This document shows positions 28,161-44,667 of a stretch of DNA of 52,389 nt, piece after piece. A program made the translations under genes and the position numbers. The DNA comes from Thermodesulfobacteriota bacterium (lineage in GTDB: Bacteria; Desulfobacterota; Desulfobacteria; Desulfobacterales; SURF-7), in NCBI GenBank assembly GCA_049320885.1, contig JBMORA010000057.1, forward strand, positions 1 through 52,389, written 5' to 3'. The notes below the pieces were generated by a model. That model had not been told where the DNA came from and ran no database searches. It saw only the letters and a list, made by a program, of their open reading frames with translations. Position 1 is the stretch's first letter; each line of letters begins with the position of its first letter.

Positions 28161-28246
28161 TACCATAGTAAGAGCCAAACCACGGGTAACCGTGGGACGG
28201 AAAGCCGCGAGTCCACATGGGGTGGATAGTCGGGCTGCCTGTGGTA
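28161..28246 (+). ncRNA. c-di-GMP-I (GEMM-I) riboswitch aptamer
   Basis: P1 TACCATAG/CTGTGGTA; GCCAAAC; P2 CCACGG-GTAA-CCGTGG with GNRA loop; GACGGAAAG; P3 with TCCAC/GTGGA; GGGCTGCC end. Ends 36 nt upstream of the first filA-like start. Confidence 0.92.
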
Positions 28247-28927: not shown

Positions 28928-28968
28928 TCGACTCGCCACTGGCGGATTGTTTAGCGCAAGCGTAATTC

Positions 28969-29000: not shown

Positions 29001-29090
29001 CTTTTCAAAACATGTTTTTTGAAGTAACGGTTAGACGGAACCTTTCGGCCGACCGGATGCCAACCGCACCCAGTCAGGTGGGATCTGCCA

Positions 29091-29765
29091 ATGAATAAGG
29101 TTTTGCAAATCAGCACCCTCGCCATACTTACATTGTTCTGGCCGGTCTTTACCATCGCGCTGGAGGCGCTTTCAGAAGATGAAATGTATGACACCTCCGG
29201 CCAGGCTAGCCCCACGGTTTCGATTAAATACAGCGATGATTTGACAGTGGATTATTTCAATCAGAACGTGGTGGTTTTCGAATCCAAGGGGGAAACCTCC
29301 ATCAGCTTTGATAAAGTTTACTACAAGGCCTCACCCGAAAGCACCACCTTCCTCGCCTTGGTTTGGCCCGACAGCGCTAAATTCATTCTAGAATTTGATA
29401 AATACCCGAATTACCCTCTGGGCATCGGCGTATCCGTTTCTGATATACTTCGAACCGGCCAGGACGGTAAACCCCTGTCCAAATTCTATGACCCGGGGGC
29501 GCCAGCCGCTCTTCCTGCCAACACCAGTTACCTGCGCACCAAACCGGCGCCCGCCACGGTTCGTACGGTCGCGAATAAATTTTATATTGCTCTGGCCAAA
29601 GGAGAAAGCGGCGTTGAAGGAGAACCGGATTGGGATGAGGCCGAAAAACACGGCAAACTGTTATACATTTATAATAGCGGTTCACAACGGATGGAAATTA
29701 TGGGATATGCATATGTTTGGGGGCGTGAAACCAGTTGGGGTTTGAAAAACCTGGGATCACGGTGA
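29091..29765 (+). CDS. Secreted protein with FilA/DUF6160-like N-terminal motif (divergent)
   Basis: Signal peptide then ALEALSEDEMYDTSGQAS. Confidence 0.65.
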   Translation: MNKVLQISTLAILTLFWPVFTIALEALSEDEMYDTSGQASPTVSIKYSDDLTVDYFNQNVVVFESKGETSISFDKVYYKASPESTTFLALVWPDSAKFILEFDKYPNYPLGIGVSVSDILRTGQDGKPLSKFYDPGAPAALPANTSYLRTKPAPATVRTVANKFYIALAKGESGVEGEPDWDEAEKHGKLLYIYNSGSQRMEIMGYAYVWGRETSWGLKNLGSR

Positions 29766-29789
29766 AGAATTGCCACCCAAAAAGTATGC

Positions 29790-29818
29790 TTGACTTTATC
29801 GTCGGTAAAGAGTATTAA
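29790..29818 (+). promoter_or_regulatory. Putative sigma70 promoter
   Basis: TTGACT-17 bp-TATTAA. Confidence 0.5.
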
Positions 29819-29883
29819 GGTGGACACAGGATCAGAAATATTACGGTTGACCTCGTAGTGTTTCTTTTTTTTGGCGAATGAAG

Positions 29884-29896
29884 TAAACAATGTTTA
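29884..29896. promoter_or_regulatory. Palindromic operator-like site, copy 2 (TAAACAATGTTTA)
   Basis: Perfect 6-1-6 palindrome, identical to the copy at 32243. Confidence 0.6.
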
Positions 29897-29940
29897 TAAC
29901 CGATAATATGGTTCCCAGGTCGAAGCGGGCAAATTGAACT

Positions 29941-31119
29941 ATGCGTTGTAATCCGACCATACAAATCAGGATCCTATTACCGATCTTCATATGGGCGATT
30001 CTATCGGTACCGCTTTCCCATGCCATTGAGGAATTGTCGGATATGGAGATGGAATCCATAACAGGTCAGGCAGGGGTCAGTATCTTTGTCACGACCATGA
30101 CCATCACCAATACCAATTCAAATTTTGTTATCTATGACACCGAGGGCGGTTCCATTGAATTCAGGCCGTTCACCTTGTCTCTCACCGCTGCTACAAGAAA
30201 TAAAACCTTTGATTTGGATTTATTTCATTATAATGAATGGTATGATGCGGAAACCACTTTTGTCGATACCTGGTCGGGGGGCACCCGCAATCTCACGGTC
30301 CAGCACCCGCTCTATGATCATGTCATTATCAACGGCTCCATTGAGAACATGGATCTGACCGTCAATGCATCCATGGACGATCTGTTTTTCAACAGCATCA
30401 ACATCGGCAAGCTGGATCTGACCAATCTGCGGGTTTCCGATGCCGCCATCAACGTGTTTCAACACAACGGCACCGGTATCGACGCCACGTTCAAAACCCG
30501 CTTCACCATCGACCAGATCGCCTACACCTACGACGACGAACAAAGCATTGACCCACGGGAACGCCTGCAATTCACCGGCATCACCGCCGCCGGCACCTTT
30601 GGCGGCGACCCCCTGCCGAGCTATGGGGATACCGTCAGTCCCGGTACCCCCATCAACACCGGAACCTGGACACCCACGGGGTATTTCGAAATCGGACAAC
30701 TCCAGCCGGTCTGGTCGTCGGCATTCGTCGATGACCCGCTTCTCCAGGACGATGCCCCCGAAGCGTCCCTGAATTCGTTCTCCATTGATTTCAAGGAAGA
30801 CAATTCTCCCTTCATCCGGCGGCAGTTCATCGTCGACTGGCAGGGCAACTACAACCCCGATCCGGACGGCTATATCGGTGACGGAACCACCACCCCGCAT
30901 ATTGCCAATGATCGGGAAAACGAAGTGTATGTCGATCTGGGGCTTCCGCTGAAAGGCTCCATCCGGTTTGAAACCAGTGTAAGATACTATGGCGGCGGAC
31001 CCGCCACCGAAGCGGATTACGGCCCTTCGGCCATCGACGGCATCAGCGGGTACACCCGCATCGAGGCCCCGGGATACGGGATTGGAAATTCACCCACGAC
31101 ATCAACATTATATGAATAG
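29941..31119 (+). CDS. Secreted FilA/DUF6160-like protein
   Basis: Signal peptide (..VPLSHA) then IEELSDMEMESITGQAGVSI; acidic, beta-rich body (IGKLDLTNL, YTYD). Confidence 0.72.
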   Translation: MRCNPTIQIRILLPIFIWAILSVPLSHAIEELSDMEMESITGQAGVSIFVTTMTITNTNSNFVIYDTEGGSIEFRPFTLSLTAATRNKTFDLDLFHYNEWYDAETTFVDTWSGGTRNLTVQHPLYDHVIINGSIENMDLTVNASMDDLFFNSINIGKLDLTNLRVSDAAINVFQHNGTGIDATFKTRFTIDQIAYTYDDEQSIDPRERLQFTGITAAGTFGGDPLPSYGDTVSPGTPINTGTWTPTGYFEIGQLQPVWSSAFVDDPLLQDDAPEASLNSFSIDFKEDNSPFIRRQFIVDWQGNYNPDPDGYIGDGTTTPHIANDRENEVYVDLGLPLKGSIRFETSVRYYGGGPATEADYGPSAIDGISGYTRIEAPGYGIGNSPTTSTLYE

Positions 31120-31145
31120 AGGCATACGATAAAACAGGCTGCCAT

Positions 31146-32057
31146 ATGGATTGGACCGTGAATCTCAGACATCGCTTATCGGGTTTCCGCAAAACAGGTA
31201 TCGTGACCTTCGCGATCCTGTCCCTGCTGGTTGCCGCACCGGTATCGGCGGAACTCTCACCGTTGAGCGACACGGAAATGGACACCATCACCGGCAGGCA
31301 GGGGTTGTCCGAATTCACCATCGAAGGCAATACTGCCCGGATATTTTTCGACATCCATGTTGAAACCTATATGGAGGTGGATTCCCTCAAACTGGGTTAT
31401 TATCAGAAATCGGATGCCGGTGTCGGCACCACCGGCGATTTGAACACCGCCAAATGGAGCGCCCTGGGAACCAAATCCTATAACAACAATTACGCCTATG
31501 TCCGTGAATTCGGGTCATCCGGACCCAACCTGTTTGAAGGCCTCCAGGGCGACGGCCAGAACATGAACACCCACGATTGGGACATCAACTGGGAAAATGT
31601 GAAACTCGGTAAAAGCAAAACCGAACCGTTGATCATCAACGGCCTCATCATGCAGGTTGAATTTGACGATATCAACGCCACCGATAAAAAATTGAAACGG
31701 GTGGTGATGGGTACCAACGACATGCAAGGGCAACTGAGCGCTGACATGCTGCGCACCACCGGTTTGATCAACCCGATGACCACCACGGACAGCCAGGCCC
31801 GGGCCCTTGCCAGCACCAATCCGGCCGACGGGAATCCGCTGCTCCTGAAACGCGACAGTCTCGGCAGCAACTGGGACAACTATGTTCTCAATGCCGGCGA
31901 TCACGATACCGGTTTCTGGGTTATCCTCAATTTCGGTTCCGGCCCCAGCGGTGAAACCGATCATATCGGCTGGGAGATCATCTCCGGATATGACGAACGG
32001 GCCGTCAACTTCAGTTACAAGGACGGCATCGAGAATGTCGACCTGTCCGGATATTAA
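31146..32057 (+). CDS. Secreted protein with FilA/DUF6160-like N-terminal motif
   Basis: Signal peptide (..APVSA) then ELSPLSDTEMDTITGRQG; IHVETYMEVDSLKLGYY...WDINWENVKLG. Confidence 0.68.
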   Translation: MDWTVNLRHRLSGFRKTGIVTFAILSLLVAAPVSAELSPLSDTEMDTITGRQGLSEFTIEGNTARIFFDIHVETYMEVDSLKLGYYQKSDAGVGTTGDLNTAKWSALGTKSYNNNYAYVREFGSSGPNLFEGLQGDGQNMNTHDWDINWENVKLGKSKTEPLIINGLIMQVEFDDINATDKKLKRVVMGTNDMQGQLSADMLRTTGLINPMTTTDSQARALASTNPADGNPLLLKRDSLGSNWDNYVLNAGDHDTGFWVILNFGSGPSGETDHIGWEIISGYDERAVNFSYKDGIENVDLSGY

Positions 32058-32164
32058 CCGACAACCAGCGGTTCCATCGAGCATTAATCCCATCCCCTGT
32101 GAACTCTTTCCCCATAAAGTTCTCAACCCTCCTGTTTTGATATACAATTCGACAATCTTCCTTC

Positions 32165-32195
32165 ATTCGTAATTCGTAATTCGCAATTCGCAATT
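32165..32195. repeat. Heptamer tandem repeat (AATTCGY)x~4.4
   Basis: attcgt aattcgt aattcgc aattcgc aatt, just upstream of the putative promoter. Confidence 0.8.
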
Positions 32196-32215
32196 GCCTT
32201 TCCCCGCTTTTTCTC

Positions 32216-32244
32216 TTGACTGGCAAACGCATTTTTTTTATATA
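32216..32244 (+). promoter_or_regulatory. Putative sigma70 promoter of the large surface-protein gene
   Basis: TTGACT-17 bp-TATATA. Confidence 0.5.
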
Positions 32245-32255
32245 AACAATGTTTA
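32243..32255. promoter_or_regulatory. Palindromic operator-like site, copy 3 (TAAACAATGTTTA)
   Basis: Perfect palindrome overlapping the putative -10/+1 region. Confidence 0.6.
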
Positions 32256-32339
32256 CACCCAAAATCCAACCAGGGACCGACCTGTTTGCCCCATCCAACC
32301 GGTGGTCTTGTGACATAATTGCCATGTAAGGATTGCACC

Positions 32340-35300
32340 ATGCGCCTTTTGCTAAACCAGAAAAAAATATATCCCCTTCTTGCCTGTCTGCTGCTGATTC
32401 TGTGCATGTTTCATCCCGCTTACGGCGGCGAACATGCTTTTCTGTATGACACAACCGAAGGCATGGTCGAACTGGGCACCCTGGGAGGCGACGAAAGCTT
32501 CGCGCTGGATATCAACAACAACGGTGCCGTGACTGGTTTCTCCAACCTGGCGGTGGGCGGTTCCAACGCCCATGCTTTTATATGGGTGGACAATATCAGC
32601 GGCGGTACCATGACCGACATCCATACGCTGACCGGCACGCAAAGCGTGGGCCGGGCCTTGAACGATTCCAACCAGGTCGTGGGTCAATTCCGAAACACCG
32701 CCGGGAAAGACCGGGCCTTTATTTGGGACAGCACCAACGGCATGCGGGATATCATCGGCACCCTCGGCGGCGACTCCAGCCAGGCATACGATATCAACAG
32801 TACCGGCCGCGTGGTGGGTTATTCCAAAACCGCCGGTGGATTCACCCATGCATTTATCTGGGACGAGGTGGGCGGAATCCGGGATATCGGCACCTTGACC
32901 GGGGGAACGGAAAGCTATGCCTATGGCATCAACAATTCCGGTCTTGTGGTTGGCTACTCTAATAAAACCGGCTCTTCCAGCACATTCTATCTGTTCACCT
33001 GGGACAGTTCCAACCCAGCCAATCCATTGGTGGACCGCGGCGTGATCATCGGCGAGCGTTTGAAAAACCTGGGAATCAATACCGCCGGACAGATCGGCGG
33101 TCACTACCTGGCCTCTTCCCCCAACTCCCATGGTTTCTTTTATAATGGTGCACTGACGGATATCGGCGTCCTGCCCGGCGACAACCGCAGCCTGGCCTTT
33201 GCCATCAACGATTCCGGAAGGGTCGTCGGCTATTCGCTGCCTTCCAACCATGGAATTCTCTGGGACGGCACCGGCGGACTGGTGGACTTCAGCGCCCCGT
33301 TCCTTGGCGGCGAGGACCGCTGTTTTGCCTACAGCATCAACAACAGCGGTCAGATCGTGGGGGCCAAAACCCCCAATGCCCCGCCGAACCCGCCGGTTTT
33401 TCTTTATCCCACGGACGGCGCCACCGGCATCGCCTTGACTGTCACCATCCAGACGGATGCCTTTTACGATCCGGACATGGATGACCCCACAACACCGGAC
33501 GACACCCACGGCCGGACCCGCTGGCAGATCAGTACCGTGCCGTTTGCCCCCCCCCCGACGGCCACCGATATGGTCATGGACATTACCAGCAGCACCCTGC
33601 TGACCTCTTTGACAGTACCCGTTTCCCTGCTGCGGGAAAACACCCGATATTATCTTCGTGCCTGCTTTTACGACAGCCGCGGGGCCCGCTCCGATTGGAC
33701 GGCCATTTCGTTCACAACGGCAACCATCGGCGACGACCTGCTGCCGAGCGGAGGCAACGGCGTACCGGACACCCAGGATGTGGATGCCACCGTGGATATG
33801 GATGCCAACAGTGTCCCGGATATCAACCAGACGGATCTCCGGGCGGTGAATACGCTCGTGGGCCAGGGCCGGATCGCCATCAAGCACCTTGCCAATGTCA
33901 CGGCCATCAACGGTTTCCGCTCCATTGATCCGGCAACCATTACCGATATGACCAATCGCCCGGAAATGATCCCCCTGGGCTTGATCAGCTGCCGCCTGGC
34001 GGTAACGACCCCGGGCGCCACGGCCCGGATAACCGTCTACCTCTCCGATCCGTCGCCCAACGGTGAATGGCATAAATACAATACCATTGACGGCTGGCAG
34101 AATTATACCTCCCATGCCGTATTCACCACTCCCGTTGAACTGACCCTGGAACTCCAGGACGGTGGTTTCGGTGACGCGGATGGCGCCGCCAACGGAGTCA
34201 TTATCGATCCCTCCGGATTCGCCTTCGCCGCTTCCCCCAATCCGCCTGCTACGCCGATTCCGGTTTCACCGGCAAACGGCGCCGTCAATGTGGATCTGGC
34301 GCCGACCCTGCAGACCGGACCATTCAATGATCCGGATGGCAACAGCCATTACCGTACGGAATGGGAAGTCAGTACGGATTCAGGTTTCAGCAGTCCGGTT
34401 TTCAGCTCCCGCACCACCACGGATCTGACAACCATCACCCTGCCGGAAGGAACCCTGGCCTCCTCGACCACCTATTACTGGCGGGTCCGGTTCACCGATA
34501 ACTATTATGCCGTCTCCAACTGGTCCGCGGTTTCCTCCTTTACAACCCTGAACATTCCTCCGGCCGCACCCGGGCCGGTTTCTCCGGCCGATGATGCCGT
34601 GGATGTGAGCCGCCTGCCGACCCTGACCACCGGAGCTTATTCCGATCCGGAAGGGAATCCTCATACCCAGACCCAATGGCAGCTCAGCCTGACGGAAGAT
34701 TTCGCAGCGCCCGCTTATGACCTTACCAGCAGCACGGATCTGACGACCCACACCGTACCCCTTGCGTCCATCCTGGACCGCGGCACCTTGTATTTCTGGC
34801 GGGTGCGCTTTTATGACGACCAGGGCAGCATATCGGACTGGTCCACGGTTTTCTCCTTCACCACAACCTCCAATACATTGCCGGAACAACCAAGCCCGGT
34901 GGCGCCGCTTGATGCGGCCGCGGATGTCGGCACGATGGCGAATCTTGAGGCTTCCGCTTACTCGGACCTGGACGGTGACAGCCATTTCCAGACCCAGTGG
35001 CAAATCAGCACCTCCTCCGACTTTTCCGCCCTTATCTTGGACGTCATAAGCGACACGCATCTGACAACACTAACGGTGCCGGATGTGGTGCTGAATGGCG
35101 GCGCCCTGTATTACTGGCGTACCCGCTATTACGACAACCAGATTCCGGCCGGTGAATCCGCCTGGTCGGCGGTTTTTTCCTTTACCACCACCGCCGACTC
35201 CGGTGACGCCAACGCCAACGGTATCCCGGACACCCAGGAAGTTTCCGGTCAAACGGATCTGGACGGAAACGGAACCCCGGATATCAACCAGAACGATATC

Positions 35301-38300
35301 AAATCCTTCAACACCCTGTTGGGTGAAGCCGGCATCGGCGTGAAGGGCGCCAACTCTATTTCGGCCGTTACGGCGGCCAAATCCGTTGATCCCGCCGCAA
35401 TAACCGACGCTACAGGCAGACCGGCCGTGATCCCGCTGGGTCTTTTCGGATTCCGCGCGACCACGGTCAATCCAGGGGATACCGGCGAAATTCAGCTCTA
35501 CCTCTCCATTCCGCTGCCGTCAACGGCATGGTATGCCTATGACACGGTTTCCGGCTGGCAGGATCTCAGCTCCCGGATAGCGTTCAGCCCCGGCAACACC
35601 TTGGCGACCCTGACCATCCAGGACGGCGGCATCGGAGATGCCGATGGCGCCGCCAACGGCGCCATAGTCCATCTCGGCTGCTTCGGTTATCCGGTCTCCA
35701 ATCCTCCGGATCAACCGCTTACGGTCAGTCCCCTGAACGGCGCATCCGGGGTGTCCCTTTCCCCATCCCTGGAAACAGGTCCTTTTACCGATCCGGATCT
35801 GAACATGCATTTCAGCACCCAGTGGCAGGTATCCACGGATCCGCTGTTTGCGACAACGGATTATTCCACCGCCAGCCTGACGGCCCTCACCCTGTTGGCG
35901 GTGCCGGAAGGCACCCTCTCCTCCAACACCACTTATTACTGGCGAGCGCGATATTATGACGCGGACTGTGCCGTTTCAGCCTGGTCCACGACGGTTTCCT
36001 TCACCACGCTGAACCTGCCGCCGGTTTCGCCGATCCTAGCCGCACCAGCGGATACCACCACCGAGGTCAGCCGCATTCCGGCTTTATCCACGGATGGGAC
36101 CTACAGTGACCCGGAAGGGAATCCCCACGCCCAGACACAGTGGCAGATTTGTGCCACGGACGATTTCACGACCCCGGTCTATGACCTTACCAGCAATACG
36201 GATCTGACGACCCATACCGTGCCGGTGGCATCCATCCTGAATCGTACCACGCTCTATTACTGGAGGGCGCGCTTCATCGACGATCAGGGCAGCCTCTCGA
36301 GCTGGTCAGCGGTTTTTTCCTTCACCACAACCGCCAACACGCCGCCGGATCAGCCGACCCTGGTCTCGCCTGCGGATGCATCCATAGATGCCAACACAAC
36401 CCCGATCCTTCAGACAAACGCCTTTACGGATCTGGACGGAGACACCCATCTGATGACCGACTGGCAAATCAGTACCGCCTCGGACTTCGCAAATCTTTTG
36501 TACAATAACCAGAGTTCCGGCAACCTGACCTCCATTTCCATTCCGGATATGATTCTGAATGGCGGCTCCTTGTATTATTGGCGCGCGCGACATTACGACA
36601 ATCAGACACCCAGTGGCGTTTCTCCATGGTCCTTGCCGTTTACGTTTACAACAGTGAATCAGGCTGCTGATATCAACGCCAACGGAATTCCGGATACCCA
36701 GGAAGTGCCGGCCTATGTCGACCTGGACGCCGACGGCACGCCGGATATCAACCAGATCGATATCAAATCCGTCCAGACCCTGGTGGGCGGCGGCCGGATC
36801 GGTGTCAAGACAGCCGGCGGCGTAACCGGTATCAGTAGCGCCAAATCCGTTGATCCGACTAGCATCACGGATACGACCAGTCGACCGGAAGTCATGCCCA
36901 TCGGTTTGATCGGTTTCAAGGCCGCCGTGGCAGCCCCCGGTGATACAGGAACCGTTACGGTCTATCTGTCCGATCCCGCACCGATCAGCGCCTGGTACCA
37001 CTACAGCGCAGACAGCGGATGGCTGGATCTCAGTTCCCAGGCGGTATTTAACGCGGAACGGGATATGGTGACCCTGACAATCCAGGACGGCGGGACAGGC
37101 GATGCGGATCACATCGCCAATGGAGTGATCGTTCATCTTGGCGGCTTCGGTTTCGCCGCTTCCTCTCCGCCGGAACAACCCGCCTTGTCGTCCCCGGCAA
37201 ACGGAACCGTGGATGAAAGCCTATCCCCGGCCCTTGCAGCCGGTGCATTCACCGATCCGGAAGGCAACAGTCATTACAGAACCCAATGGCAGGTCAGTAC
37301 CGCCTCGGATTTCAGTTCTCTGGTTATGGACATTAACACAACCATTCATTTGACCCAGATAACCATCCCGGCCACCGTGTTAAACCAGAACACGCTTTAC
37401 TACTGGCGTGTTCGGTACACGGACAATTATTATGCCGTATCGTCATGGTCGGCGGCTTTCACCTTCACCACCATCCTTACCAATGACGATGCCAACGCCG
37501 ACAGCGTTCCCGATCTTCTGGAACTCGATCCGGCCATCGATATGGATGTGGATTTGGACAACAACGACACGGCCGATCTCGGCCAGACGGATATCAAATG
37601 TCTGCAAAGTCTGGTCGGCGTCTTTGGCAATGAGATGATCGGCGTTAAACAAACCGCCGACGTGACCGGCATCCTCCGCATCAATTCCATCGATCCGGCC
37701 GGCATTGCGGATACCGCCGGACGGCCGGGAGTATTGCCCTTCGGTCTGATCAGCATGAAACTGGCCGTGGTAAACGCCGGTCAGAATGCTCAGGTTGAGA
37801 TTTACTTCTCCGATCCGGCTCCCCTGTCGGCCTGGTATACCTATGATACCGTTGATGGTTGGCGCGACATGACCCACCTCGCCACTTTCAGCGCCGACCG
37901 CAAAACCGTCACCCTGACCATCCAGGACGGCGGTTACGGCGATCATGACGGCGCAACCAACGGTATGATCGTGCATACTGGCGGGTTCGGCTTCCCGGCT
38001 TCTGCCAATGCACCGGCAGTTCCCGGCATTGCCGTGCCCGGCGACGGCTCATTGACACCCGCTTTGCAAGCCGGCGCGTTCGCGGATTTGGATGGGGATT
38101 CCCATTTCAAAACCCACTGGCAGGTGAGCACCACGGACAATTTTTCAACTTTGGTGCTGGACAGGATCACCGGCCCGGTCACCTCGCTGGCCATCCCTTA
38201 TGGGATGCTGACCGCCGGGACGACATATTATTGGCGGGCCCAATTCTACGACAATTATTATACCGCCTCCGGCTGGCCGGTTGCGGCGGGGTTCACCACT

Positions 38301-38897
38301 GGAACCGATCCGAACGATCTCAATACAAACGGCATCCCGGATGCCCAGGAAGTGGATGCCGGGATTGACCTGGATGGGAACGGCACTGCGGACAACGCCC
38401 AGACGGATATCAAGTCCGTCAATACGATCATCGGCGGGGGCCAGATGGGGATTAAAGCCTCCACCAATGTCTTCTCCATCGATGCGATCCAATCCGTGGA
38501 CCCGGCGACATTGCCGGACGGTGGCGACGGCAAGCCGGCCAGCATGCCCCTCGGTATCCTGGACTTTCGCATTACCGTAACGACACCCGGGGATACCGCC
38601 CAGGTGGTCGTATATTTCTCCCAGGCCGCTCCGGCGGCCGAATGGTTCAAATATGATCCCATCAGCAGTTGGACGAATTATTCAAACCATGCCGTTTTCG
38701 CCGCCGATATGCTGTCCGTCACCTTGACATTGAAAGACGGCGCCTTCGGCGATGCAGACGGGGTTGCCAACGGAATCATTATCGATCCCTCCGGTCCTGG
38801 AAAGCTGGTAGTGGATCCGGTCAATCCCAGCCCGGGCGGCAGTGGAGATACGGACAGCGGCGGCGGATGCTTTATCAGCAGTATGCTGCATGACTGA
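32340..38897 (+). CDS. Large secreted repeat protein / putative adhesin: HAF repeats, 9 FN3-like modules, 5 choice-of-anchor-U-like domains, C-terminal GGGCFISS sorting motif
   Basis: Signal peptide; ~7 HAF-type repeats (GTLGG..S.A.DIN..G.VVG..HAFIW); P..P..SP...TQWQ.S...F...YYWR.R modules; five LT.xDG..GD.D...NG.I domains; Gly/Ser linker + GGGCFISS at the C-terminus. Start ATG 32340 preferred. Confidence 0.85.
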   Translation: MRLLLNQKKIYPLLACLLLILCMFHPAYGGEHAFLYDTTEGMVELGTLGGDESFALDINNNGAVTGFSNLAVGGSNAHAFIWVDNISGGTMTDIHTLTGTQSVGRALNDSNQVVGQFRNTAGKDRAFIWDSTNGMRDIIGTLGGDSSQAYDINSTGRVVGYSKTAGGFTHAFIWDEVGGIRDIGTLTGGTESYAYGINNSGLVVGYSNKTGSSSTFYLFTWDSSNPANPLVDRGVIIGERLKNLGINTAGQIGGHYLASSPNSHGFFYNGALTDIGVLPGDNRSLAFAINDSGRVVGYSLPSNHGILWDGTGGLVDFSAPFLGGEDRCFAYSINNSGQIVGAKTPNAPPNPPVFLYPTDGATGIALTVTIQTDAFYDPDMDDPTTPDDTHGRTRWQISTVPFAPPPTATDMVMDITSSTLLTSLTVPVSLLRENTRYYLRACFYDSRGARSDWTAISFTTATIGDDLLPSGGNGVPDTQDVDATVDMDANSVPDINQTDLRAVNTLVGQGRIAIKHLANVTAINGFRSIDPATITDMTNRPEMIPLGLISCRLAVTTPGATARITVYLSDPSPNGEWHKYNTIDGWQNYTSHAVFTTPVELTLELQDGGFGDADGAANGVIIDPSGFAFAASPNPPATPIPVSPANGAVNVDLAPTLQTGPFNDPDGNSHYRTEWEVSTDSGFSSPVFSSRTTTDLTTITLPEGTLASSTTYYWRVRFTDNYYAVSNWSAVSSFTTLNIPPAAPGPVSPADDAVDVSRLPTLTTGAYSDPEGNPHTQTQWQLSLTEDFAAPAYDLTSSTDLTTHTVPLASILDRGTLYFWRVRFYDDQGSISDWSTVFSFTTTSNTLPEQPSPVAPLDAAADVGTMANLEASAYSDLDGDSHFQTQWQISTSSDFSALILDVISDTHLTTLTVPDVVLNGGALYYWRTRYYDNQIPAGESAWSAVFSFTTTADSGDANANGIPDTQEVSGQTDLDGNGTPDINQNDIKSFNTLLGEAGIGVKGANSISAVTAAKSVDPAAITDATGRPAVIPLGLFGFRATTVNPGDTGEIQLYLSIPLPSTAWYAYDTVSGWQDLSSRIAFSPGNTLATLTIQDGGIGDADGAANGAIVHLGCFGYPVSNPPDQPLTVSPLNGASGVSLSPSLETGPFTDPDLNMHFSTQWQVSTDPLFATTDYSTASLTALTLLAVPEGTLSSNTTYYWRARYYDADCAVSAWSTTVSFTTLNLPPVSPILAAPADTTTEVSRIPALSTDGTYSDPEGNPHAQTQWQICATDDFTTPVYDLTSNTDLTTHTVPVASILNRTTLYYWRARFIDDQGSLSSWSAVFSFTTTANTPPDQPTLVSPADASIDANTTPILQTNAFTDLDGDTHLMTDWQISTASDFANLLYNNQSSGNLTSISIPDMILNGGSLYYWRARHYDNQTPSGVSPWSLPFTFTTVNQAADINANGIPDTQEVPAYVDLDADGTPDINQIDIKSVQTLVGGGRIGVKTAGGVTGISSAKSVDPTSITDTTSRPEVMPIGLIGFKAAVAAPGDTGTVTVYLSDPAPISAWYHYSADSGWLDLSSQAVFNAERDMVTLTIQDGGTGDADHIANGVIVHLGGFGFAASSPPEQPALSSPANGTVDESLSPALAAGAFTDPEGNSHYRTQWQVSTASDFSSLVMDINTTIHLTQITIPATVLNQNTLYYWRVRYTDNYYAVSSWSAAFTFTTILTNDDANADSVPDLLELDPAIDMDVDLDNNDTADLGQTDIKCLQSLVGVFGNEMIGVKQTADVTGILRINSIDPAGIADTAGRPGVLPFGLISMKLAVVNAGQNAQVEIYFSDPAPLSAWYTYDTVDGWRDMTHLATFSADRKTVTLTIQDGGYGDHDGATNGMIVHTGGFGFPASANAPAVPGIAVPGDGSLTPALQAGAFADLDGDSHFKTHWQVSTTDNFSTLVLDRITGPVTSLAIPYGMLTAGTTYYWRAQFYDNYYTASGWPVAAGFTTGTDPNDLNTNGIPDAQEVDAGIDLDGNGTADNAQTDIKSVNTIIGGGQMGIKASTNVFSIDAIQSVDPATLPDGGDGKPASMPLGILDFRITVTTPGDTAQVVVYFSQAAPAAEWFKYDPISSWTNYSNHAVFAADMLSVTLTLKDGAFGDADGVANGIIIDPSGPGKLVVDPVNPSPGGSGDTDSGGGCFISSMLHD

Positions 38898-38899
38898 GG

Positions 38900-39004
38900 A
38901 AAAAGTTGCAACACTAACATACTGTAACGTCTGATGAGCGCCCGGGAAGATCGGAATTCATATCTTTCCAAATTCTCAGGGCGTTCCCGGGTGTGCAACT
39001 TTTT
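38900..39004. repeat. Nested intergenic inverted repeat (~105 bp)
   Basis: AAAAAGTTGCA (38900-38910) / TGCAACTTTTT (38994-39004), with inner CCCGGGAA (38941-48) / TTCCCGGG (38984-91). Confidence 0.6.
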
Positions 39005-39039
39005 TCTTTACAATTTATTGGCTAATTGATATAGACACT

Positions 39040-39052
39040 TAAACAGTGTTCA
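39040..39052. promoter_or_regulatory. Palindromic operator-like site, copy 4 (TAAACAGTGTTCA)
   Basis: One arm mismatch to TAAACA-N-TGTTTA; ~50 bp upstream of the C39 peptidase start. Confidence 0.55.
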
Positions 39053-39099
39053 TTGCAGTTAATCAAGTTTGTAGATCGTTTCCCGGAGTTGCCCAACAT

Positions 39100-39843
39100 A
39101 TGGAAATTTTTCTTATCTTCCTTCTCATTGTCGGTCTGGTAGGCGGGGAAGATATGGCCACGGAAACACCCCAGGGCGAGATACGCTTGTATCCGGAAGT
39201 CAACAGCCTGACGGTCATCAGACCGGTGGTCAAGCCCCTCTCGGATATCCTGGATGACCGCATCATCCGGCAGGAATTCGATTACAGCTGCGGATCAGCG
39301 GCCCTTTCCACTTTATTGAATTTCTATCTGGGTGAAAAACTGTCCGAGCGCCAGGTTATTCATGGTCTTCTGCGTTATGGAGACAGCGAGCAGATCGCGG
39401 AGCGACGCGCCTTCTCGTTGCTGGACATGAAAAAATTCGTCACCGTGCTGGGATACAAAGGGGTTGGCTATAAAGCGGAAATCACGGACCTGGAAGAGCT
39501 CGGGAAACCCTGTATTCTGCCGATCAAGGTCTTCGGATATAGGCATTTTACTGTTTTTAAAGGTATTTATAAAGGACACGTCTTCCTGGCCGACCCCTGG
39601 AAAGGGCATTCCAGTTACACCCTTTCGGAATTCAAGGACATCTGGTACGAAAACGTGCTGTTTGTCGTATATCCGGAAGGCGGGAAAGAATTGGACGCCC
39701 TGCGTCTCAAGGAATCGGACCTGCGGTTCATCGATGAGGACACGACTTTTTATTATCTTTTCCGGCAGCCGCCGTTGTTGAGTATTCCTGAAAGGCAGAT
39801 CGATGATATTCCGGGAACATTGCAATATTATAAACGACACTAA
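39100..39843 (+). CDS. Stand-alone secreted C39 family cysteine peptidase (FilB/FapD-like)
   Basis: RQEFDYSCGSAAL (Gln/Cys), RRAFSLLDMK, YRHFTVFKG (His), LADP (Asp); hydrophobic N-terminus from ATG 39100; no ABC transporter domains. Confidence 0.9.
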   Translation: MEIFLIFLLIVGLVGGEDMATETPQGEIRLYPEVNSLTVIRPVVKPLSDILDDRIIRQEFDYSCGSAALSTLLNFYLGEKLSERQVIHGLLRYGDSEQIAERRAFSLLDMKKFVTVLGYKGVGYKAEITDLEELGKPCILPIKVFGYRHFTVFKGIYKGHVFLADPWKGHSSYTLSEFKDIWYENVLFVVYPEGGKELDALRLKESDLRFIDEDTTFYYLFRQPPLLSIPERQIDDIPGTLQYYKRH

Positions 39844-39894
39844 AGCAGTAACCAGTATCCGGCGAGGCTGGAATCAATTCAGGAGGCGGCCCGT

Positions 39895-41853
39895 ATGAAG
39901 GATAACAGGGGGAACATGATAAAACAATCTGGAACGCTACTCGTCATCCTATGGACGATATTTTTCGCCGCGCCACCCATTTGGATCCCGGAAGGTCTGG
40001 CGGAAGAGTTATCAAATGAACTCGCGGCCACTGAAAATCCTCGGGCAACCGTGTCCCCGAAAAAAACAGCCACCTCCCCCACGGGTTATGCGATCCAGAC
40101 AGGTGTATTCCTGATAATGGAAAACGCCCGTCAAATGATGACGAATCTGCGCATGAAAGGATATGAACCATATATCTTTCAAACGGTTAACGATAAAAAG
40201 CAGAAACTGTATGTGGTCAGAATCGGTGACTATCGCACCCTGCGCCAGGCCTCATCCGCGGCTGATCAGTTCAAGAACCTGGAGCATCTGCCGGCGGTGA
40301 TCACGCCCATCAACTCCACCAAGGCCGTCGATACCCCTCTTTACCTGACAACAGCTTCCAAAAACGGCGTCATTTCAACAGAGGAACTATCGGAAATCGA
40401 CGGCGGCACCGGCTCGCTGATCGATTCCGAAGAACTAGCCACCATCGACGGTCAAACCGGCGCCATCCTGCAAACCGATGAATTATCGCAAATCGCCGCC
40501 CAGAGCGGTACCGTCATTACCACCGACGAAATGGCCGTTGTGGACGGCAGAACCGGAACGATCATACCGGCGGATGAAATGGCCACGGTGGACGGCCGGA
40601 CCGGCACGGTGGTGTCGCCCGGCGAACTGGCCACAGTTGATGGCCGGACCGGCACGGTGGTGCCTTCCGGTGAGCTGGCCACCGTGGACGGCCAAACCGG
40701 TCAGGCCATCCCCAAGGGGGACCTTTCTAAAATCCGCGCCCAGTCGGCGGGGGTGTCCTTTTCCCCGGCCGATGACGCCGAACCATTCGTCTTTTCACAA
40801 AAAGCCACGAAAGAGGATGCACCTCAGGAAGACGATCCGTTCGGCATCTCCTCGGAACAGGAAGGAGGAGGACAAGGAATCGATAACGCCACGGCCCGAC
40901 AGCTGAAAGACCAGATCGAAGCCCTGCAGGAAAAAGTCAACGAACTCCGGGAAGAAGCCGACGTCCGTAAAATTCTGGAAATCACCGAAGAGGAAAAGCA
41001 GGAGGAAGAAGAGGAAATTCTCTCCGCCACGGGCCGTGACTACACCATGGCCAAAAAGGGCAGCATTGGTTTTGATTACGGTCTTTCCTATACCTACAAC
41101 TCCTTTGATGCCATCGAGGATGCCGCCAACTTGACCAAGATCGAGCATCGCGCCCAGCATAATGTCACTAATTCCCTTGGGCTTGTCTACGCCGTGCGCG
41201 ACAATGTCTCCTTCGGCGCCAACATCCCCTTTGTTTACAGTTATGACAGCATGGGAACGGAATCCCCGAAAAAGGTCACGGACATCGGCGATGTCTCCCT
41301 CAGTCTTCAGTGGCAACCTCTCAAGGCAGGGGGCAGTCTGCCGCCGGGAATCCTCAGCTTCAGCTTCACCATGCCCAGCGGTCGAAGCCCCTATGAAATC
41401 AACCCGGAGGAAGAACTCTCAACCGGCTCAGGCCTGAAAAGTCTGTCAGCAGGATTATCCTTGAATCATCCCATGGATCCGGTGGTGACTTATGGCGGTA
41501 TCACCTACGGATATTCGCTGCCACTGGAAAATCTGGACTCCCAGCGCTACGGCGACATTCTCACGGAGGTCCATCCCGGCCAATCCATCGGCATCAGGCT
41601 TGGTCTCGGTTACGCTCTCTCGTATCAGTTGAACATGAACCTCAACCTGAGTTATTCGTACCAATTCGGAGCCGAGTATGTTTATCGATACAGCGGCATC
41701 CAACCATCGGCGGATTCGGCCAGCGCGAATTTCAGTATCGGCACTGGTTGGCGGATCTCACCCACCAGGTCTCTGAACATATCGCTTTCAAAAGGGTTGA
41801 GCAATGACGCGTCGGATTTTTCACTGGGCCTGTCCGTCCCCTTCAATTTCTAG
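39895..41853 (+). CDS. Outer-membrane transporter (FilC/FapF-like barrel) fused to a SPOR domain, 16-aa repeats and a coiled coil
   Basis: AGGAGG RBS; signal peptide; SPOR-like YAIQTGVF..ENA...L..KGY...LYVVRIG.Y; coiled coil (QLKDQIEALQEKVNELRE); barrel motifs IGDVSLSLQWQP, PSGRSPY, STGSG, DPVV.YG; terminal SVPFNF. Confidence 0.82.
   Translation: MKDNRGNMIKQSGTLLVILWTIFFAAPPIWIPEGLAEELSNELAATENPRATVSPKKTATSPTGYAIQTGVFLIMENARQMMTNLRMKGYEPYIFQTVNDKKQKLYVVRIGDYRTLRQASSAADQFKNLEHLPAVITPINSTKAVDTPLYLTTASKNGVISTEELSEIDGGTGSLIDSEELATIDGQTGAILQTDELSQIAAQSGTVITTDEMAVVDGRTGTIIPADEMATVDGRTGTVVSPGELATVDGRTGTVVPSGELATVDGQTGQAIPKGDLSKIRAQSAGVSFSPADDAEPFVFSQKATKEDAPQEDDPFGISSEQEGGGQGIDNATARQLKDQIEALQEKVNELREEADVRKILEITEEEKQEEEEEILSATGRDYTMAKKGSIGFDYGLSYTYNSFDAIEDAANLTKIEHRAQHNVTNSLGLVYAVRDNVSFGANIPFVYSYDSMGTESPKKVTDIGDVSLSLQWQPLKAGGSLPPGILSFSFTMPSGRSPYEINPEEELSTGSGLKSLSAGLSLNHPMDPVVTYGGITYGYSLPLENLDSQRYGDILTEVHPGQSIGIRLGLGYALSYQLNMNLNLSYSYQFGAEYVYRYSGIQPSADSASANFSIGTGWRISPTRSLNISLSKGLSNDASDFSLGLSVPFNF
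40369..40752 (+). repeat. Eight in-frame 48-nt (16-aa) tandem repeats resembling double-glycine leader peptides
   Basis: VISTEELSEIDGGTGS / LIDSEELATIDGQTGA / ILQTDELSQIAAQSGT / VITTDEMAVVDGRTGT / IIPADEMATVDGRTGT / VVSPGELATVDGRTGT / VVPSGELATVDGQTGQ / AIPKGDLSKIRAQSAG. Confidence 0.88.
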
Positions 41854-41868
41854 CGGCGAGCGCACATC

Positions 41869-43647
41869 ATGACCAGCAGAGGACAAGATACCCAACAACC
41901 ATCTCCGACTGAAATCCTCTTCCGGATTGCGACCGTATTTGTCTATCTATTCCTGTTCGCGCCCGTTGTCACTTTTGCGGCATTCAACGAACAGATGGTG
42001 GTGGATCCCATTTCCATTGCCTTGGGCAACTCCGTCACCGCCCGGCCCCCTGGGATTGCCTCCCTGCATTTCAATCCTGCCGGTTTGACCAAACTGCCCG
42101 AGGGCAAATTGAAAGGCAGCGGTCTTACGGTCGCCCGGACGGTTCGAAAGGTGACCACCTATCCGGATCAGAATTTCGGCGGCTTCATGAACACCTTCGG
42201 GCCAGCGGAAAAAGGCATGCGGCCCGACCCCTGCTGGGGCGTGGAAGGCACCAGCACCAGTACGGATTTGTTCATACCCATCAAGGGCGCCATTCATTTC
42301 GATCCCTTTCTGGCCCTGCCGACATCCACCCAGGCCTACACCAAACCCGGCTCCCGATGGTCCTTTGCCCGTGGCGTCATCTCACCGTTTTCCGGAGGCT
42401 TTTCCCACAAAATCAACAATGACCCGAACATGTTCTTTGCCCGGGAACTCTATTCCCAGCGAATCAATTATCTGTCTCCAGGAGTGGGATACCGGGTCAG
42501 CGACCAGTTTTCCGTCGGGCTGACCGTGGCTGCGGGGATGACCAACTTCGGCGTCAAGGGTTTCCGCCGCAGCCCGAGCCATATGACCGCCCTCACCAAA
42601 ATCCTCGGCGAAGCGACCAGGACTTTGAACATCCCGATCATCTCCCAGGAAACCCTTCCGCCTCCCTGGTTCGGCGGTGGCATCAGTCCCTGGGAACCGG
42701 TGATGGAAATGCAGGTCCGCATGAACGACTGGTTCAGCCCCAGCTACAACATCGGCGCCCTGTGGGAACCGAATCAGTATATCTCTTTCGGCGCGGTCTA
42801 TCAAAGTGAAATCCGCAATGAAATGACCGGCGACTACATGTTTTCCTATACCCCGCCCTTCAGGAGCATGATCGACTGGTTCGGCTCATCACCCCTGCTG
42901 CAAATCCAATCCGCCATTCTGGACCTTCCCACCCAGTCCGTTCCGTACCAGAAAGGCACAGTGGTGTCGGAATACAGTTTCCCCCAGCGCGTGCAGGCCG
43001 GCGTCATGCTGTCGCCATTCAAAAAAATGCGTCTGCTCTGCGATGTCCACTGGGCGGACTGGTCGGTCTGGCCGGCCATGGAGCTCCATTTCGACCAGGA
43101 CATCCAGGCCCTGAGGCTGGCCAAACTCTCTGGTCACACCCACGGCAACCGGACCGTTGTATCAGAAACCGGCCTTCACGACACCTTTCACTGGAGTTAC
43201 GGTCTGGAATACGACCTGTCCAATGTTCTGTGCCTGAGACTGGGTTATGAAGACCGCCAGTCATCCGTCAATATTCAAGATTTCAGCCTCTCCAGCCTGC
43301 CGGACATTAAAAAATACGGTGTCGGCGTCGGCGTCAAGATGAAAAACGGCGCCACCCTGGATGTGGGCTACTCCTATGCCGACACCGGCGATTACTGGGT
43401 CCCCAATGACACCAGCGTCAACCTCAACTCCCTCCGATTCACCAAAACCTCCCAAAGTCAATACGCCGGCTCCCATGTCAAATTCCGGTTTTTCGCCCAT
43501 CTGTTCAGTTTCGCCATCACCAAACCGGTGACGGTTCCGGAAGAAACCGCTGTCCGCAAAGCGGATAAATTCAAAAAGCTGAAACAGAACCTGAAATTCA
43601 CCATGGAAAAGCTGAAGTCTTCCCTGAATCCGTTTAAAAAGAATTAA
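41869..43647 (+). CDS. FadL/OmpP1-family outer-membrane protein (FilD-like)
   Basis: IALGNSVTARPPGIASLHFNPAGL plug motif, SYNIGALWEP, DVHWADWS, LRLGYEDR. Confidence 0.85.
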   Translation: MTSRGQDTQQPSPTEILFRIATVFVYLFLFAPVVTFAAFNEQMVVDPISIALGNSVTARPPGIASLHFNPAGLTKLPEGKLKGSGLTVARTVRKVTTYPDQNFGGFMNTFGPAEKGMRPDPCWGVEGTSTSTDLFIPIKGAIHFDPFLALPTSTQAYTKPGSRWSFARGVISPFSGGFSHKINNDPNMFFARELYSQRINYLSPGVGYRVSDQFSVGLTVAAGMTNFGVKGFRRSPSHMTALTKILGEATRTLNIPIISQETLPPPWFGGGISPWEPVMEMQVRMNDWFSPSYNIGALWEPNQYISFGAVYQSEIRNEMTGDYMFSYTPPFRSMIDWFGSSPLLQIQSAILDLPTQSVPYQKGTVVSEYSFPQRVQAGVMLSPFKKMRLLCDVHWADWSVWPAMELHFDQDIQALRLAKLSGHTHGNRTVVSETGLHDTFHWSYGLEYDLSNVLCLRLGYEDRQSSVNIQDFSLSSLPDIKKYGVGVGVKMKNGATLDVGYSYADTGDYWVPNDTSVNLNSLRFTKTSQSQYAGSHVKFRFFAHLFSFAITKPVTVPEETAVRKADKFKKLKQNLKFTMEKLKSSLNPFKKN

Positions 43648-43652
43648 ATAGT

Positions 43653-43681
43653 TTGACATCTGCCGGAAGGAATTCTATATT
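43653..43681 (+). promoter_or_regulatory. Putative sigma70 promoter upstream of the riboswitch array
   Basis: TTGACA-17 bp-TATATT. Confidence 0.65.
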
Positions 43682-43809
43682 GCAGATGGACAAATGGACT
43701 CCTTGGAGTTCCTCCAAAACACGGATTTGTTCTTTGACAAGCTGCCGGGAAACCATGCCTGTTCTTTGATATAAAAGAGACCAGACATGGGTAAAAGAGT
43801 AACCAGCAC

Positions 43810-43877
43810 GCCAAACCATGGGTAACCATGGGACGGAAAGCCACGGGTCCTGACAGCCTCAGGATAGCCGGGTTGCC
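43810..43877 (+). ncRNA. c-di-GMP-I riboswitch aptamer core, tandem copy 1 of 4
   Basis: GCCAAAC; P2 CCATGG-GTAA-CCATGG; GACGGAAAG; P3 tip TCCTGA-CAGCC-TCAGGA; GGGTTGCC end; flanking P1 TAACCAG/CTGATTA. Confidence 0.92.
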
Positions 43878-43905
43878 TGATTATAGAACTGAACCGTTTT
43901 TTTTA

Positions 43906-43970
43906 GCCAAACCATGGGTAACCATGGGACGGAAAGCCACGGGTCCTGACCCCAGGATAGCCGGGTTGCC
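43906..43970 (+). ncRNA. c-di-GMP-I riboswitch aptamer core, tandem copy 2 of 4
   Basis: Same core; P3 tip shortened by 3 nt (TCCTG-ACCC-CAGGA) with pairing retained. Confidence 0.9.
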
Positions 43971-44000
43971 GGAATTGTCTATAACAGATTTTTACAACTA

Positions 44001-44068
44001 GCCAAACCACGGGTAACTGTGGGACGGAAAGCCACGGGTCCTGACAGCCTCAGGATAGCCGGGTTGCC
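44001..44068 (+). ncRNA. c-di-GMP-I riboswitch aptamer core, tandem copy 3 of 4
   Basis: Same core; P2 carries pairing-preserving changes (CCACGG-GTAA-CTGTGG). Confidence 0.9.
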
Positions 44069-44079
44069 TCCTTCTCAAT

Positions 44080-44147
44080 GCCAAACCATGGGTAACCATG
44101 GGACGGAAAGCCACGGGTCCTGACAGCCTCAGGATAGCCGGGTTGCC
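44080..44147 (+). ncRNA. c-di-GMP-I riboswitch aptamer core, tandem copy 4 of 4
   Basis: 68-nt core identical to copy 1; ends 13 nt before the GAAGGGAG RBS. Confidence 0.92.
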
Positions 44148-44175
44148 TGTGAGTTTCACAGAAGGGAGAATGAAT

Positions 44176-44667
44176 ATGAAAAAACGTAGTTTCCTTATGG
44201 CAGCAATTATTTGGGCATTCGCACTGTTAGCAACCCCCCAGACCGGTAATGCGAAACTGATGGAAATGTCCGATGCGGATTTAAATGAGATCACCGGCCA
44301 GGCCGGCTTCTCGATTCAAGCCGGTGAAATGATCGGCCTGCATATCGAAAGCGAAGCCTTTACCTGGGCGAATCCGGATTCCGTTGGGCCGGACGGCTTA
44401 CCCGCCGCTCTTACCTTCGCGGATACGACCCTGAACGGGTGGATCTCGTCTCCGAACGGCATGAACATCGACTTCATCACCGAACAAACGGCGGCAGGCA
44501 ACAATGTCACCGCTCTCAGCATCAACATGCAGGACATGACGGTTGCAATCGATGATTTCAAAACCAATATCAAACTGGGGGATTCCAGCCTTGGTGTTTT
44601 CGGCATCCAAGGATTGCGTGCCCAAATTTCAGGAAACGTGCGTATATACACCCGCAGCGATATGTAA
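44176..44667 (+). CDS. Secreted FilA/DUF6160-like protein (short)
   Basis: GAAGGGAG RBS 7 nt before ATG 44176; signal peptide (..TGNA); KLMEMSDADLNEITGQAGFSI; C-terminal IKLG..SLGVFGIQGL...ISGNVRIY. Confidence 0.78.
   Translation: MKKRSFLMAAIIWAFALLATPQTGNAKLMEMSDADLNEITGQAGFSIQAGEMIGLHIESEAFTWANPDSVGPDGLPAALTFADTTLNGWISSPNGMNIDFITEQTAAGNNVTALSINMQDMTVAIDDFKTNIKLGDSSLGVFGIQGLRAQISGNVRIYTRSDM

Follow-up and report, generated by a model that had tools for sequence, protein, structure and literature searches.

A conserved tandem array of four c-di-GMP-I aptamers before a DUF6160 gene in a Thermodesulfobacteriota bacterium, and its possible shared translational platform

Why would a single gene carry four copies of the same ligand-binding RNA in its leader? 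Tandem riboswitches are natural examples of RNA alone turning a graded signal into a digital one, and the published cases of the cyclic di-GMP (c-di-GMP) class I end at three units, each with a terminator. The question is raised by a 52,389-nucleotide (nt) stretch of a Thermodesulfobacteriota bacterium of the Desulfobacterales (contig JBMORA010000057.1 of assembly GCA_049320885.1, positions 1 to 52,389; hereafter, the window), in which four near-identical c-di-GMP-I aptamers follow one another in the 5' leader of a gene for a secreted DUF6160 protein. The leader is very probably a genuine, selected four-aptamer unit. For its mode of action we favour, with a probability of about 0.4, a multi-aptamer leader with a single translational platform that would be OFF at high c-di-GMP.

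An initial annotation of the window, made from the sequence, had claimed four c-di-GMP-I aptamers and expected four matches in an Infernal scan with the Rfam model. RF01051 (GEMM-I; gathering score, 35 bits), searched alone across the bacterium's own genome (5.6 Mb), returned those four matches at 64-67 bits; the whole genome yielded just six c-di-GMP-I matches, five of them inside the window. A repeat search recovered the array as four direct repeats of approximately 70 nt (43810-43879, 43906-43975, 44001-44070 and 44080-44149) at spacings of 96, 95 and 79 nt, and copies 1 and 4 were without any difference across 70 nt. With a core hidden Markov model (HMM), the core lengths were 68, 65, 68 and 68 nt and the linkers 28, 30 and 11 nt, the same values as annotated before; the CCACGG/CTGTGG variant of helix P2 in copy 3 and the P3 tip shortened by 3 nt in copy 2 were also present as described. 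An all-family cmscan of the window reported only three of the four copies. The apparent lack of a third aptamer was rejected: the match of copy 3 (43992-44072) overlaps that of copy 4 (44071-44151) by 2 nt and was omitted because same-clan overlaps are removed, and copy 3 scanned by itself scored 65.7 bits (RF03168).

Some copies scored best against the variant families RF03168 and RF03167, which we take to be the UAU and GGC variants, respectively. The discriminating positions carry the letters of RF01051, with G and C at sites that are U in RF03168, and A at a site that is G in RF03167; in the model alignments of the window, this G stands before the first paired CC, the A is the first unpaired A after P2, and the C follows P3. 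All four copies have the ligand-contact nucleotides G20, A47 (presumably a contact) and C92, and belong neither to the UAU or GGC variant types nor to the A20 type associated with cyclic GMP-AMP (cGAMP). Among 42 aptamers, G20 and A47 were invariant and C92 was conserved in at least 90%; position 20 is G in four of the four window copies and in 193 of the 211 aptamers of 49 arrays. G20 and C92 contact the two guanines of the ligand (PMC11705072). By sequence and contact nucleotides, the four copies are bona fide c-di-GMP-I aptamers.

The initial annotation had named fewer copies in sequencing reads, and neutrality of all copies but the last, as findings that would speak against it; neither was seen. 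In contigs of public runs (DNA run X1 and the RNA-library runs X2 and X4 of another study), exact matches joined aptamer 1, linker and aptamer 2 (43850-43935), aptamer 2, linker and aptamer 3 (43921-44032 and 43953-44037), aptamer 3, linker and aptamer 4 (44040-44109 and 44040-44124), and aptamer 4 and the gene (44119-44318 and 44120-44182). No contig among these runs spanned the whole array, and contigs broke inside the repeats, because the repeats exceed the assembler's word; the order of the copies is given by copy-specific letters in the contig pieces, together with the orthologues. Regarding structure, 98.3% of cells were paired in the P2 and P3 arms, P2 having a GNRA loop, in an alignment of 42 aptamers from 11 arrays. 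Compensatory changes were found in seven of 19 pairs, a level matched by none of 500 column shuffles, and slid controls were 17-50% paired, in keeping with the earlier claim that the differences between copies preserve pairing under selection on RNA structure.

The array was also compared with those of two relatives of the same genus, G001 and G002, each of which keeps a four-copy array. The four window aptamers showed 91-96% identity to their orthologues (aptamer 1, 91% in G001 and 96% in G002; aptamer 2, 92% and 91%) and the linkers 66-100%. Identity was 75% and 90%, respectively, in the downstream coding sequence, 57% and 82% at its third codon positions, and approximately 50% farther upstream. 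Neutral extra copies are disfavoured, since the identity of the aptamers is far above the third-codon and upstream levels, and this comparison places all four aptamers under purifying selection. Copy 3 has the P2 variant CCACGG/CUGUGG in all three of these arrays, and the copies are therefore orthologous by position. The P3 tips (43850-43860, 44041-44051 and 44120-44130) are near-equal within a genome and different between genomes (GACAGCCUC, UUCAAC/UUCUGC, GACGCGAUC), a pattern that suggests copy homogenization or gene conversion while positional features stay orthologous.

The window array is not an isolated case. It belongs to a conserved family, present in many sulfate reducers and syntrophs, whose arrays have three to seven aptamers. 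RF01051 was found in 42 of the 60 relatives searched. Among the matches listed, at least eight of the 60 held runs of four to six adjacent aptamers, including four-aptamer runs in G001, G002, G012, G014 and G016, one run of five and one of four in G036, and a run of six in G029. Genomes (one per species) and metagenome contigs were scanned for a pattern in which a 12-nt aptamer motif occurs three times at intervals. In the genomes, 27 loci matched and 24 were real arrays, with three copies in four arrays, four in 16 and five in four, and none with six or seven; in the metagenome contigs, 42 loci matched and 33 were real arrays, with three copies in five, four in 17, five in eight, six in two and seven in one, several of them ending at a contig edge. 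Three of the genome loci (L018, L021 and L030) and nine of the metagenome loci held no aptamer and were removed before counting. Copies were counted with a core-only nhmmer profile; an earlier covariance model with 8-nt flanks had undercounted adjacent copies through overlap removal. The arrays occur in Desulfosudis, Desulforapulum, Desulfocicer, Desulfobacteraceae, Desulforegulaceae and Desulfohalobiaceae, and also in Smithella/Smithellaceae/Syntrophaceae, with one divergent triplet in Sulfurovaceae.

Four-copy arrays span more than one aptamer lineage and gene family, because locus L015 (G059:C102, 1530-1895, minus strand) holds four aptamers of a different c-di-GMP-I subtype (GACGCAAAGC, GAAA loops; 71-80 bits) before a gene for a 392-aa secreted protein with a GHSHG motif, which is not DUF6160. 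An Acido-Lenti-1 RNA match lies at 2847-2893 of the same locus. In Smithella-type arrays (L020, L022, L025, L028, L039, L057, L061, L073 and L078), the second aptamer has A at position 20, which over the 49 arrays is G in 193 aptamers, A in 14 and C in three. A20 accompanies selectivity for 3'3'-cGAMP in Geobacter (PMC9481103), and by analogy the Smithella-type arrays may mix two ligands.

How might several aptamers act on one gene? The anatomy of the platform was analysed in 49 distinct arrays, 46 of them with a 3' flank, and statistics on complements of the Shine-Dalgarno (SD) sequence were taken from a 25-array subset. In the window, CCUCC (44068-44072) begins exactly at C93 of aptamer 3, as part of a putative anti-SD sequence, and the SD lies beyond aptamer 4 (Table 1); the duplex between the two is predicted at -8.9 to -9.0 kcal/mol. 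CUCC was present in the last linker of 23 of the 25 arrays, against five of 53 other linkers, and the best SD complement was the last linker in 22 of the 25, with a mean duplex energy of -8.2 vs -4.9 kcal/mol. Over the 49 arrays, (C)UCC stands directly 3' of the penultimate aptamer in 42. At the other end, 39 of 46 arrays have a hairpin that takes C93 of the last aptamer as its first base and stops 1-3 nt short of the SD; the stems vary (CUGUGA/UCACAG, CUGU/ACAG, CUGUGAGAU/AUCUUACAG, CUGUUU/AAACAG, CUGAAGAAAG.../...CUUUCUUCAG). A covariation-based candidate from alifold, in which CUGCC of the leader (alignment columns 24-28) pairs with the SD, was not adopted, having four pairs and covariation in one.

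The usual partner of C93 is missing. In all four window copies, the base six nt before G20 is other than G. Linker 3-4 is wholly without G, so that aptamer 4 cannot form a pair of the G14-C93 type with its 5' flank. A canonical P1 between the 5' linker of the last aptamer and its 3' tail was rejected over the 46 arrays (-3.9 vs -3.7 kcal/mol for shuffled sequences). A P1a helix made from an aptamer's own 5' and 3' flanks, as with G14-C93 in the Vc2 riboswitch of Vibrio cholerae, was thus not found here, which lowers the case for the canonical architecture, not for class membership; P1a is not part of the RF01051 model. An exception to the unpaired flanks is formed by 12 of the 46 arrays, which have a pseudo-SD, UAGGA.

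The linkers do not appear to be passive spacers: the 11-nt linker carries the conserved anti-SD, and those of 28 and 30 nt can pair around copy 2. In four-copy arrays with two long linkers, the strand from C93 of aptamer 1 onward can pair with the middle of linker 2-3. The window duplex of this kind (43877-43886 with 43979-43987), anchored at C93, is predicted at -9.0 kcal/mol and encloses aptamer 2; its sequence is UG(A)UUAUAG/CUAUAACA in the window's genus and UGUAAA/UUUACA, CUGAU/AUCAG or ACAA/UUGU elsewhere, and this evidence for a helix around aptamer 2 is suggestive only. A consensus scan found no terminator-like site on the plus strand within the leader, and the long linkers folded no better than shuffled sequences (-4.8 kcal/mol, z +0.5; -7.4 kcal/mol, z -0.7), in agreement with the initial annotation, which had seen no clear terminators between the units. 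With no terminator per aptamer and only 11 nt between copies 3 and 4, the array differs from a tandem of complete riboswitches; it has the form of adjacent aptamers with one platform, the sole SD/anti-SD platform flanking aptamer 4. Arrays with linkers down to 5-12 nt are numerous, and the units of Smithella-type arrays lack platforms of their own, since every linker there is 6-14 nt.

We propose the following mechanism. C93 of each aptamer would open a helix with a downstream strand, replacing P1a below the ligand pocket; the downstream strand is proposed as the P1a equivalent because the canonical 5' partner of C93 is missing. For aptamer 3, this equivalent would be CUCC:GGAG, the anti-SD:SD helix itself, which would enclose aptamer 4 and the terminal hairpin, both of them helping to close it. 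Binding of c-di-GMP to aptamers 3 and 4 would then stabilize the masking of the SD and lower translation at high c-di-GMP. Aptamers 1 and 2 could form a similar nested pair upstream, and the need for several ligands would sharpen the response into a steep one. A c-di-GMP-I riboswitch is reported, by the title of one study (Inuzuka 2018), to repress translation by masking a distant ribosome-binding site. Given a genuine leader, control through SD/anti-SD pairing is probable; given such control, the balance tips towards OFF, the sign being the least secure step of the proposal. In the Vc2 riboswitch, P1a and stable ligand binding are mutually dependent (PMC11705072).

With respect to known systems, what is new here is the size of the array and its putative single shared translational platform; the aptamer class itself is known. 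The Bc3-5 triple tandem of Bacillus thuringiensis has a terminator per unit and is a transcriptional ON switch (Zhou 2016, PMC4759541), the output of which is reported to gain in stringency and to become more digital as units are added. As in Bc3-5, several c-di-GMP-I aptamers share one 5' untranslated region before cell-surface protein genes; unlike Bc3-5 as described in the available text, the window leader has four units, no terminators, one 11-nt linker and a single terminal SD/anti-SD platform. A survey by Sherlock 2022 counted 347 doublets and 12 triplets of c-di-GMP-I, which were filed as multiple expression platforms and regarded as pseudo-cooperative (PMC9481103). In its available sections, quadruplets are mentioned for glycine only, and c-di-GMP-I arrays of at least four units such as the present one are not mentioned. 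The remark in the initial annotation that double and triple tandems, with terminators in the B. thuringiensis triple, had already been described agrees with both papers. According to Weinberg 2007, one third of delta-proteobacterial GEMM RNAs are tandem (PMC1950547), in the same riboswitch class and the same broad taxon as the window array. A 2025 survey found contiguous c-di-GMP riboswitches to be enriched in Thermodesulfobacteriota (PMC12452182); its Table S20, as far as available, has two triplet rows and none longer, with Desulfosudis oleivorans in the genome set. In the open literature, subscription-only papers lying outside the search, no description was found of c-di-GMP-I arrays of at least four aptamers or of a platform shared by them.

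Two other comparisons concern architecture. As in the tandem glycine riboswitch, aptamers 3 and 4 are same-ligand neighbours with a short linker and a shared platform; the aptamer class is another, and the layout looks nested, not side by side. Glycine aptamers, for their part, dock through known tertiary contacts. Vc2 is of the same aptamer class as the window copies, and its ligand binding is coupled to the P1a next to C92 (PMC11705072). Vc2 is single, however, and takes its P1a from its own flanks; in the window the 5' partner is missing, and C93 is proposed to pair with a downstream strand.

Several points weigh against this proposal. In silico, the SD pairs with 44068-44072, 43699-43703 and 44190-44196; the anti-SD at the first of these sites takes only approximately 15% of the full-leader ensemble, and the other two partners, the last one within codons 5-7, compete with it. 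Covariation cannot be expected for the SD/anti-SD pairing, because both are conserved sequences. The contribution of aptamers 1 and 2 is left unexplained by the model; the duplex between linkers 1-2 and 2-3 is statistically weak (z = -0.3 to -2.9), and a crude classifier applied to 56 long linkers, with 28 short ones set aside, assigned 14 to nesting of the next aptamer, left 38 unclear, and found three that pair beyond the last aptamer and one local hairpin. We know of no solved precedent for a P1a formed with a downstream strand. In addition, c-di-GMP riboswitches that control surface and adhesin genes more often turn them ON. Finally, in the 12 of 46 arrays with UAGGA after the last aptamer, this pseudo-SD could capture the anti-SD on binding, a logic of the ON type. 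The most elaborate form of the proposal is graded as unlikely: an architecture in which up to seven aptamers are nested in one another's closing helices, with downstream P1a helices and an SD helix clamped between two ligand-bound pockets, would act as a cooperative translational switch (Hill >2), and possibly as a c-di-GMP buffer, for an extracellular filament system of DUF6160 subunits, a C39 peptidase and outer-membrane barrels in sulfate reducers and syntrophs.

The same architecture could give an ON switch if CCUCC paired with the SD without ligand, and if binding drew the linker and tail into the aptamer junction and freed the SD. In the 12 arrays, pairing of the CCUCCUA linker with the pseudo-SD (UAGGA or GGAG) is nearly as strong as with the real SD (-7.0 vs -7.3 kcal/mol), and the regulated protein resembles an extracellular filament subunit, a kind of structure that cells usually produce when c-di-GMP is high. 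The triple tandem of B. thuringiensis, which also precedes surface-protein genes, is ON (PMC4759541). However, the class of arrays to which the window belongs is without an alternative partner (linker:tail, -3.5 vs -2.5 kcal/mol shuffled, and +0.6 kcal/mol in G001), and with the anti-SD 5' and the SD 3' of the last aptamer, compaction should join them; we rate the ON switch as unlikely. Less plausible still is a series of four independent transcription-elongation riboswitches, acting through Rho or weak intrinsic terminators, in which four read-through decisions would multiply into a digital response. In the literature, tandem c-di-GMP-I riboswitches are modelled as independent units that give a more digital output (PMC4759541; PMC9481103), the untranslated leader is approximately 480 nt long, and U8 after aptamer 1 and U5 after the 43979-43987 arm occur in three same-genus arrays. 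The U8 tract is confined to those three and has no stable hairpin before it, terminator-like hairpins were not found in the leader, and arrays of other genera with the same four-copy layout have A-rich runs instead of U tracts; moreover, the 5-12-nt linkers of many arrays are too short for a platform, and the conserved CCUCC would go unexplained, which makes this series improbable.

The remaining explanations concern whether the array regulates the gene at all. A transcript with four to seven high-scoring aptamers might serve mainly as a sponge or buffer, an abundant RNA lowering free c-di-GMP with or without gene control. Pieces of the leader do occur in RNA-library contigs, and c-di-GMP-I aptamers are understood to bind very tightly, with few c-di-GMP molecules per cell; yet the contigs give no measure of abundance, the own genome has only the six such aptamers, and the link to one gene family (25 of 27) with a conserved SD/anti-SD platform points to cis-regulation, so that we hold such a role to be very improbable. 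Hardly any weight remains for an assembly artefact, or for recent neutral duplications of which only the last copy works: the identity of copies 1 and 4 and the lack of a whole-array contig would fit it, but other runs contain exact matches to each of the three distinct linkers, two congeners and several further genera have orthologous four-copy arrays that keep copy-specific features, and conservation of all four copies far exceeds that of third codon positions and intergenic sequence. If the arrays do share one platform, they would, at four to seven aptamers, rank with the longest natural aptamer arrays on record, and a mechanism different from serial terminators would be needed, based on shared or nested helices. 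The arrays make it possible to test directly what steepness a dose response can reach with RNA alone, and they offer a ready part for c-di-GMP biosensors. If true, the proposal would also identify the DUF6160 family and its 16-kb cluster as a surface structure under c-di-GMP control in anaerobes of environmental importance.

Table 1. Positions of the array, its proposed regulatory elements and the associated gene cluster in the window
Feature	Position	Strand	Details
c-di-GMP-I aptamer 1	43810..43877	+	RF01051 67.3 bits; core HMM match; G20=43810, C92=43876, C93=43877
c-di-GMP-I aptamer 2	43906..43970	+	RF01051 65.3 bits; core HMM match; P3 tip 3 nt shorter
c-di-GMP-I aptamer 3	44001..44068	+	RF01051 64.2 bits; P2 CCACGG/CUGUGG; C92=44067, C93=44068
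c-di-GMP-I aptamer 4	44080..44147	+	RF01051 67.2 bits; RF03168 68.4 bits; core HMM match; C93=44147
Putative anti-SD CCUCCUUCU	44067..44075	+	End of aptamer 3 plus 11-nt linker (44069-44079)
Predicted terminal hairpin CUGUGA-GUU-UCACAG	44147..44161	+	Begins at C93 of aptamer 4; -6.5 kcal/mol
SD AAGGGAG	44162..44168	+	Read from sequence
Linker 1-2, 28 nt	43878..43905	+	U8 tract 43897-43904
5' arm of proposed helix from C93 of aptamer 1 (C-UG(A)UUAUAG)	43877..43886	+	Would pair with 43979-43987
Linker 2-3, 30 nt	43971..44000	+	43979-43987 (CUAUAACAG) is the 3' arm of the proposed helix around aptamer 2
Sigma-70-like promoter TTGACA-17-TATATT	43653..43681	+	11 of 12 positions match
Conserved 5' leader element	43731..43799	+	TCTTTGACA, hairpin 43753-43790, GGTAAAAGAG
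Secreted DUF6160 protein gene, 163 aa	44176..44667	+	PF19657 33.7 bits vs cut-off 27; signal peptide; alternative ATG 44170
Single fifth c-di-GMP-I aptamer	28165..28243	+	Heads the same cluster, before DUF6160 gene 28283-28927
DUF6160 paralogues	starts 28283, 29941, 31146		First is the riboswitch-led gene
2192-aa protein with immunoglobulin (Ig)-like repeats	32319-38897		
Stand-alone C39 peptidase	39046-39843		
Outer-membrane protein	39895-41853		SPOR and MetA-pathway domains
FadL-like barrel	41869-43647		

The gene behind the array is predicted to encode a secreted DUF6160 protein, for which the start at 44176 is more likely than that at 44170, because the SD GGGAG lies at 44164-44168. The family stands behind 25 of the 27 array-linked open reading frames tested (E <= 0.01), 21 of the 25 scoring above 27 bits; the exceptions are the Sulfurovaceae triplet and a doublet in G022. 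A literature search on DUF6160 found no relevant description. In a structure predicted with 23 homologues (pLDDT 63.7), four long beta strands follow a disordered N-terminus. The best Foldseek match, a weak one, was chain A of 9XFV, the protomer of an environmental 'pilus-like-alpha' filament (E 2.9e-3, TM 0.35), and the same chain was the sole match of the DUF6160 family profile against the PDB (E 0.19). The 9XFV structure is from PMC12956863. From these models the protein may be an extracellular filament subunit, which we treat as a lead. The conserved N-terminus, MSDxxLxxxTGQAG, presumably resembles a double-glycine leader and would make the protein a candidate substrate of a C39 peptidase.

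Codons 5-7 of the gene (44188-44197, AGT TTC CTT, Ser-Phe-Leu) keep their nucleotide sequence (TTAGTTTCCT) in 12 of 25 array-linked genes from different genera. Complementary to the SD and its main local partner in silico, they could be a second SD-masking element or simply reflect protein conservation.

A cluster of approximately 16.5 kb (28165-44667) is bracketed by two riboswitch-led DUF6160 genes (Table 1). Its first gene follows the single fifth aptamer, which has the same C-CUG...CAG helix and then an SD; in G001 and G002, too, a single aptamer lies 16-18 kb upstream of the array. By its predicted contents, the cluster resembles a system that exports and assembles a surface fibre. Upstream of it (19121-27717) are genes for large TPR-repeat proteins, including an MFS-spermidine-synthase-like-TPR fusion (24337-27717). 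TPR-type genes such as these often accompany exosortase/PEP-CTERM surface systems.

Upstream of the aptamers, the TTGACA-17-TATATT promoter noted in the initial annotation was located, and the same motif was recognized by eye ahead of the arrays in G001 and G002. The stretch 43400-43795 had no cover in the RNA-library runs X2 and X4, a gap that is not taken to locate the transcription start. Between promoter and array lies the conserved 5' leader element, which occurs once in the 5.6-Mb genome and precedes the first aptamer in most arrays (L017, L038, L041, L023, L026 and others). It had no Rfam match; its hairpin has a predicted fold of -21.9 kcal/mol (z -1.9) and showed compensatory changes in an eight-sequence alifold. 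The element holds a YUCUUU/AAAGAG pair, similar to a degenerate anti-SD/SD module. Close to the predicted 5' end, a hairpin UUGGAG-UUC-CUCCAA with CUCCU before it (43699-43719) carries both SD-like and anti-SD-like sequences and is an in silico competitor for the real SD; it has a 10-bp version in G002 and none in G001.

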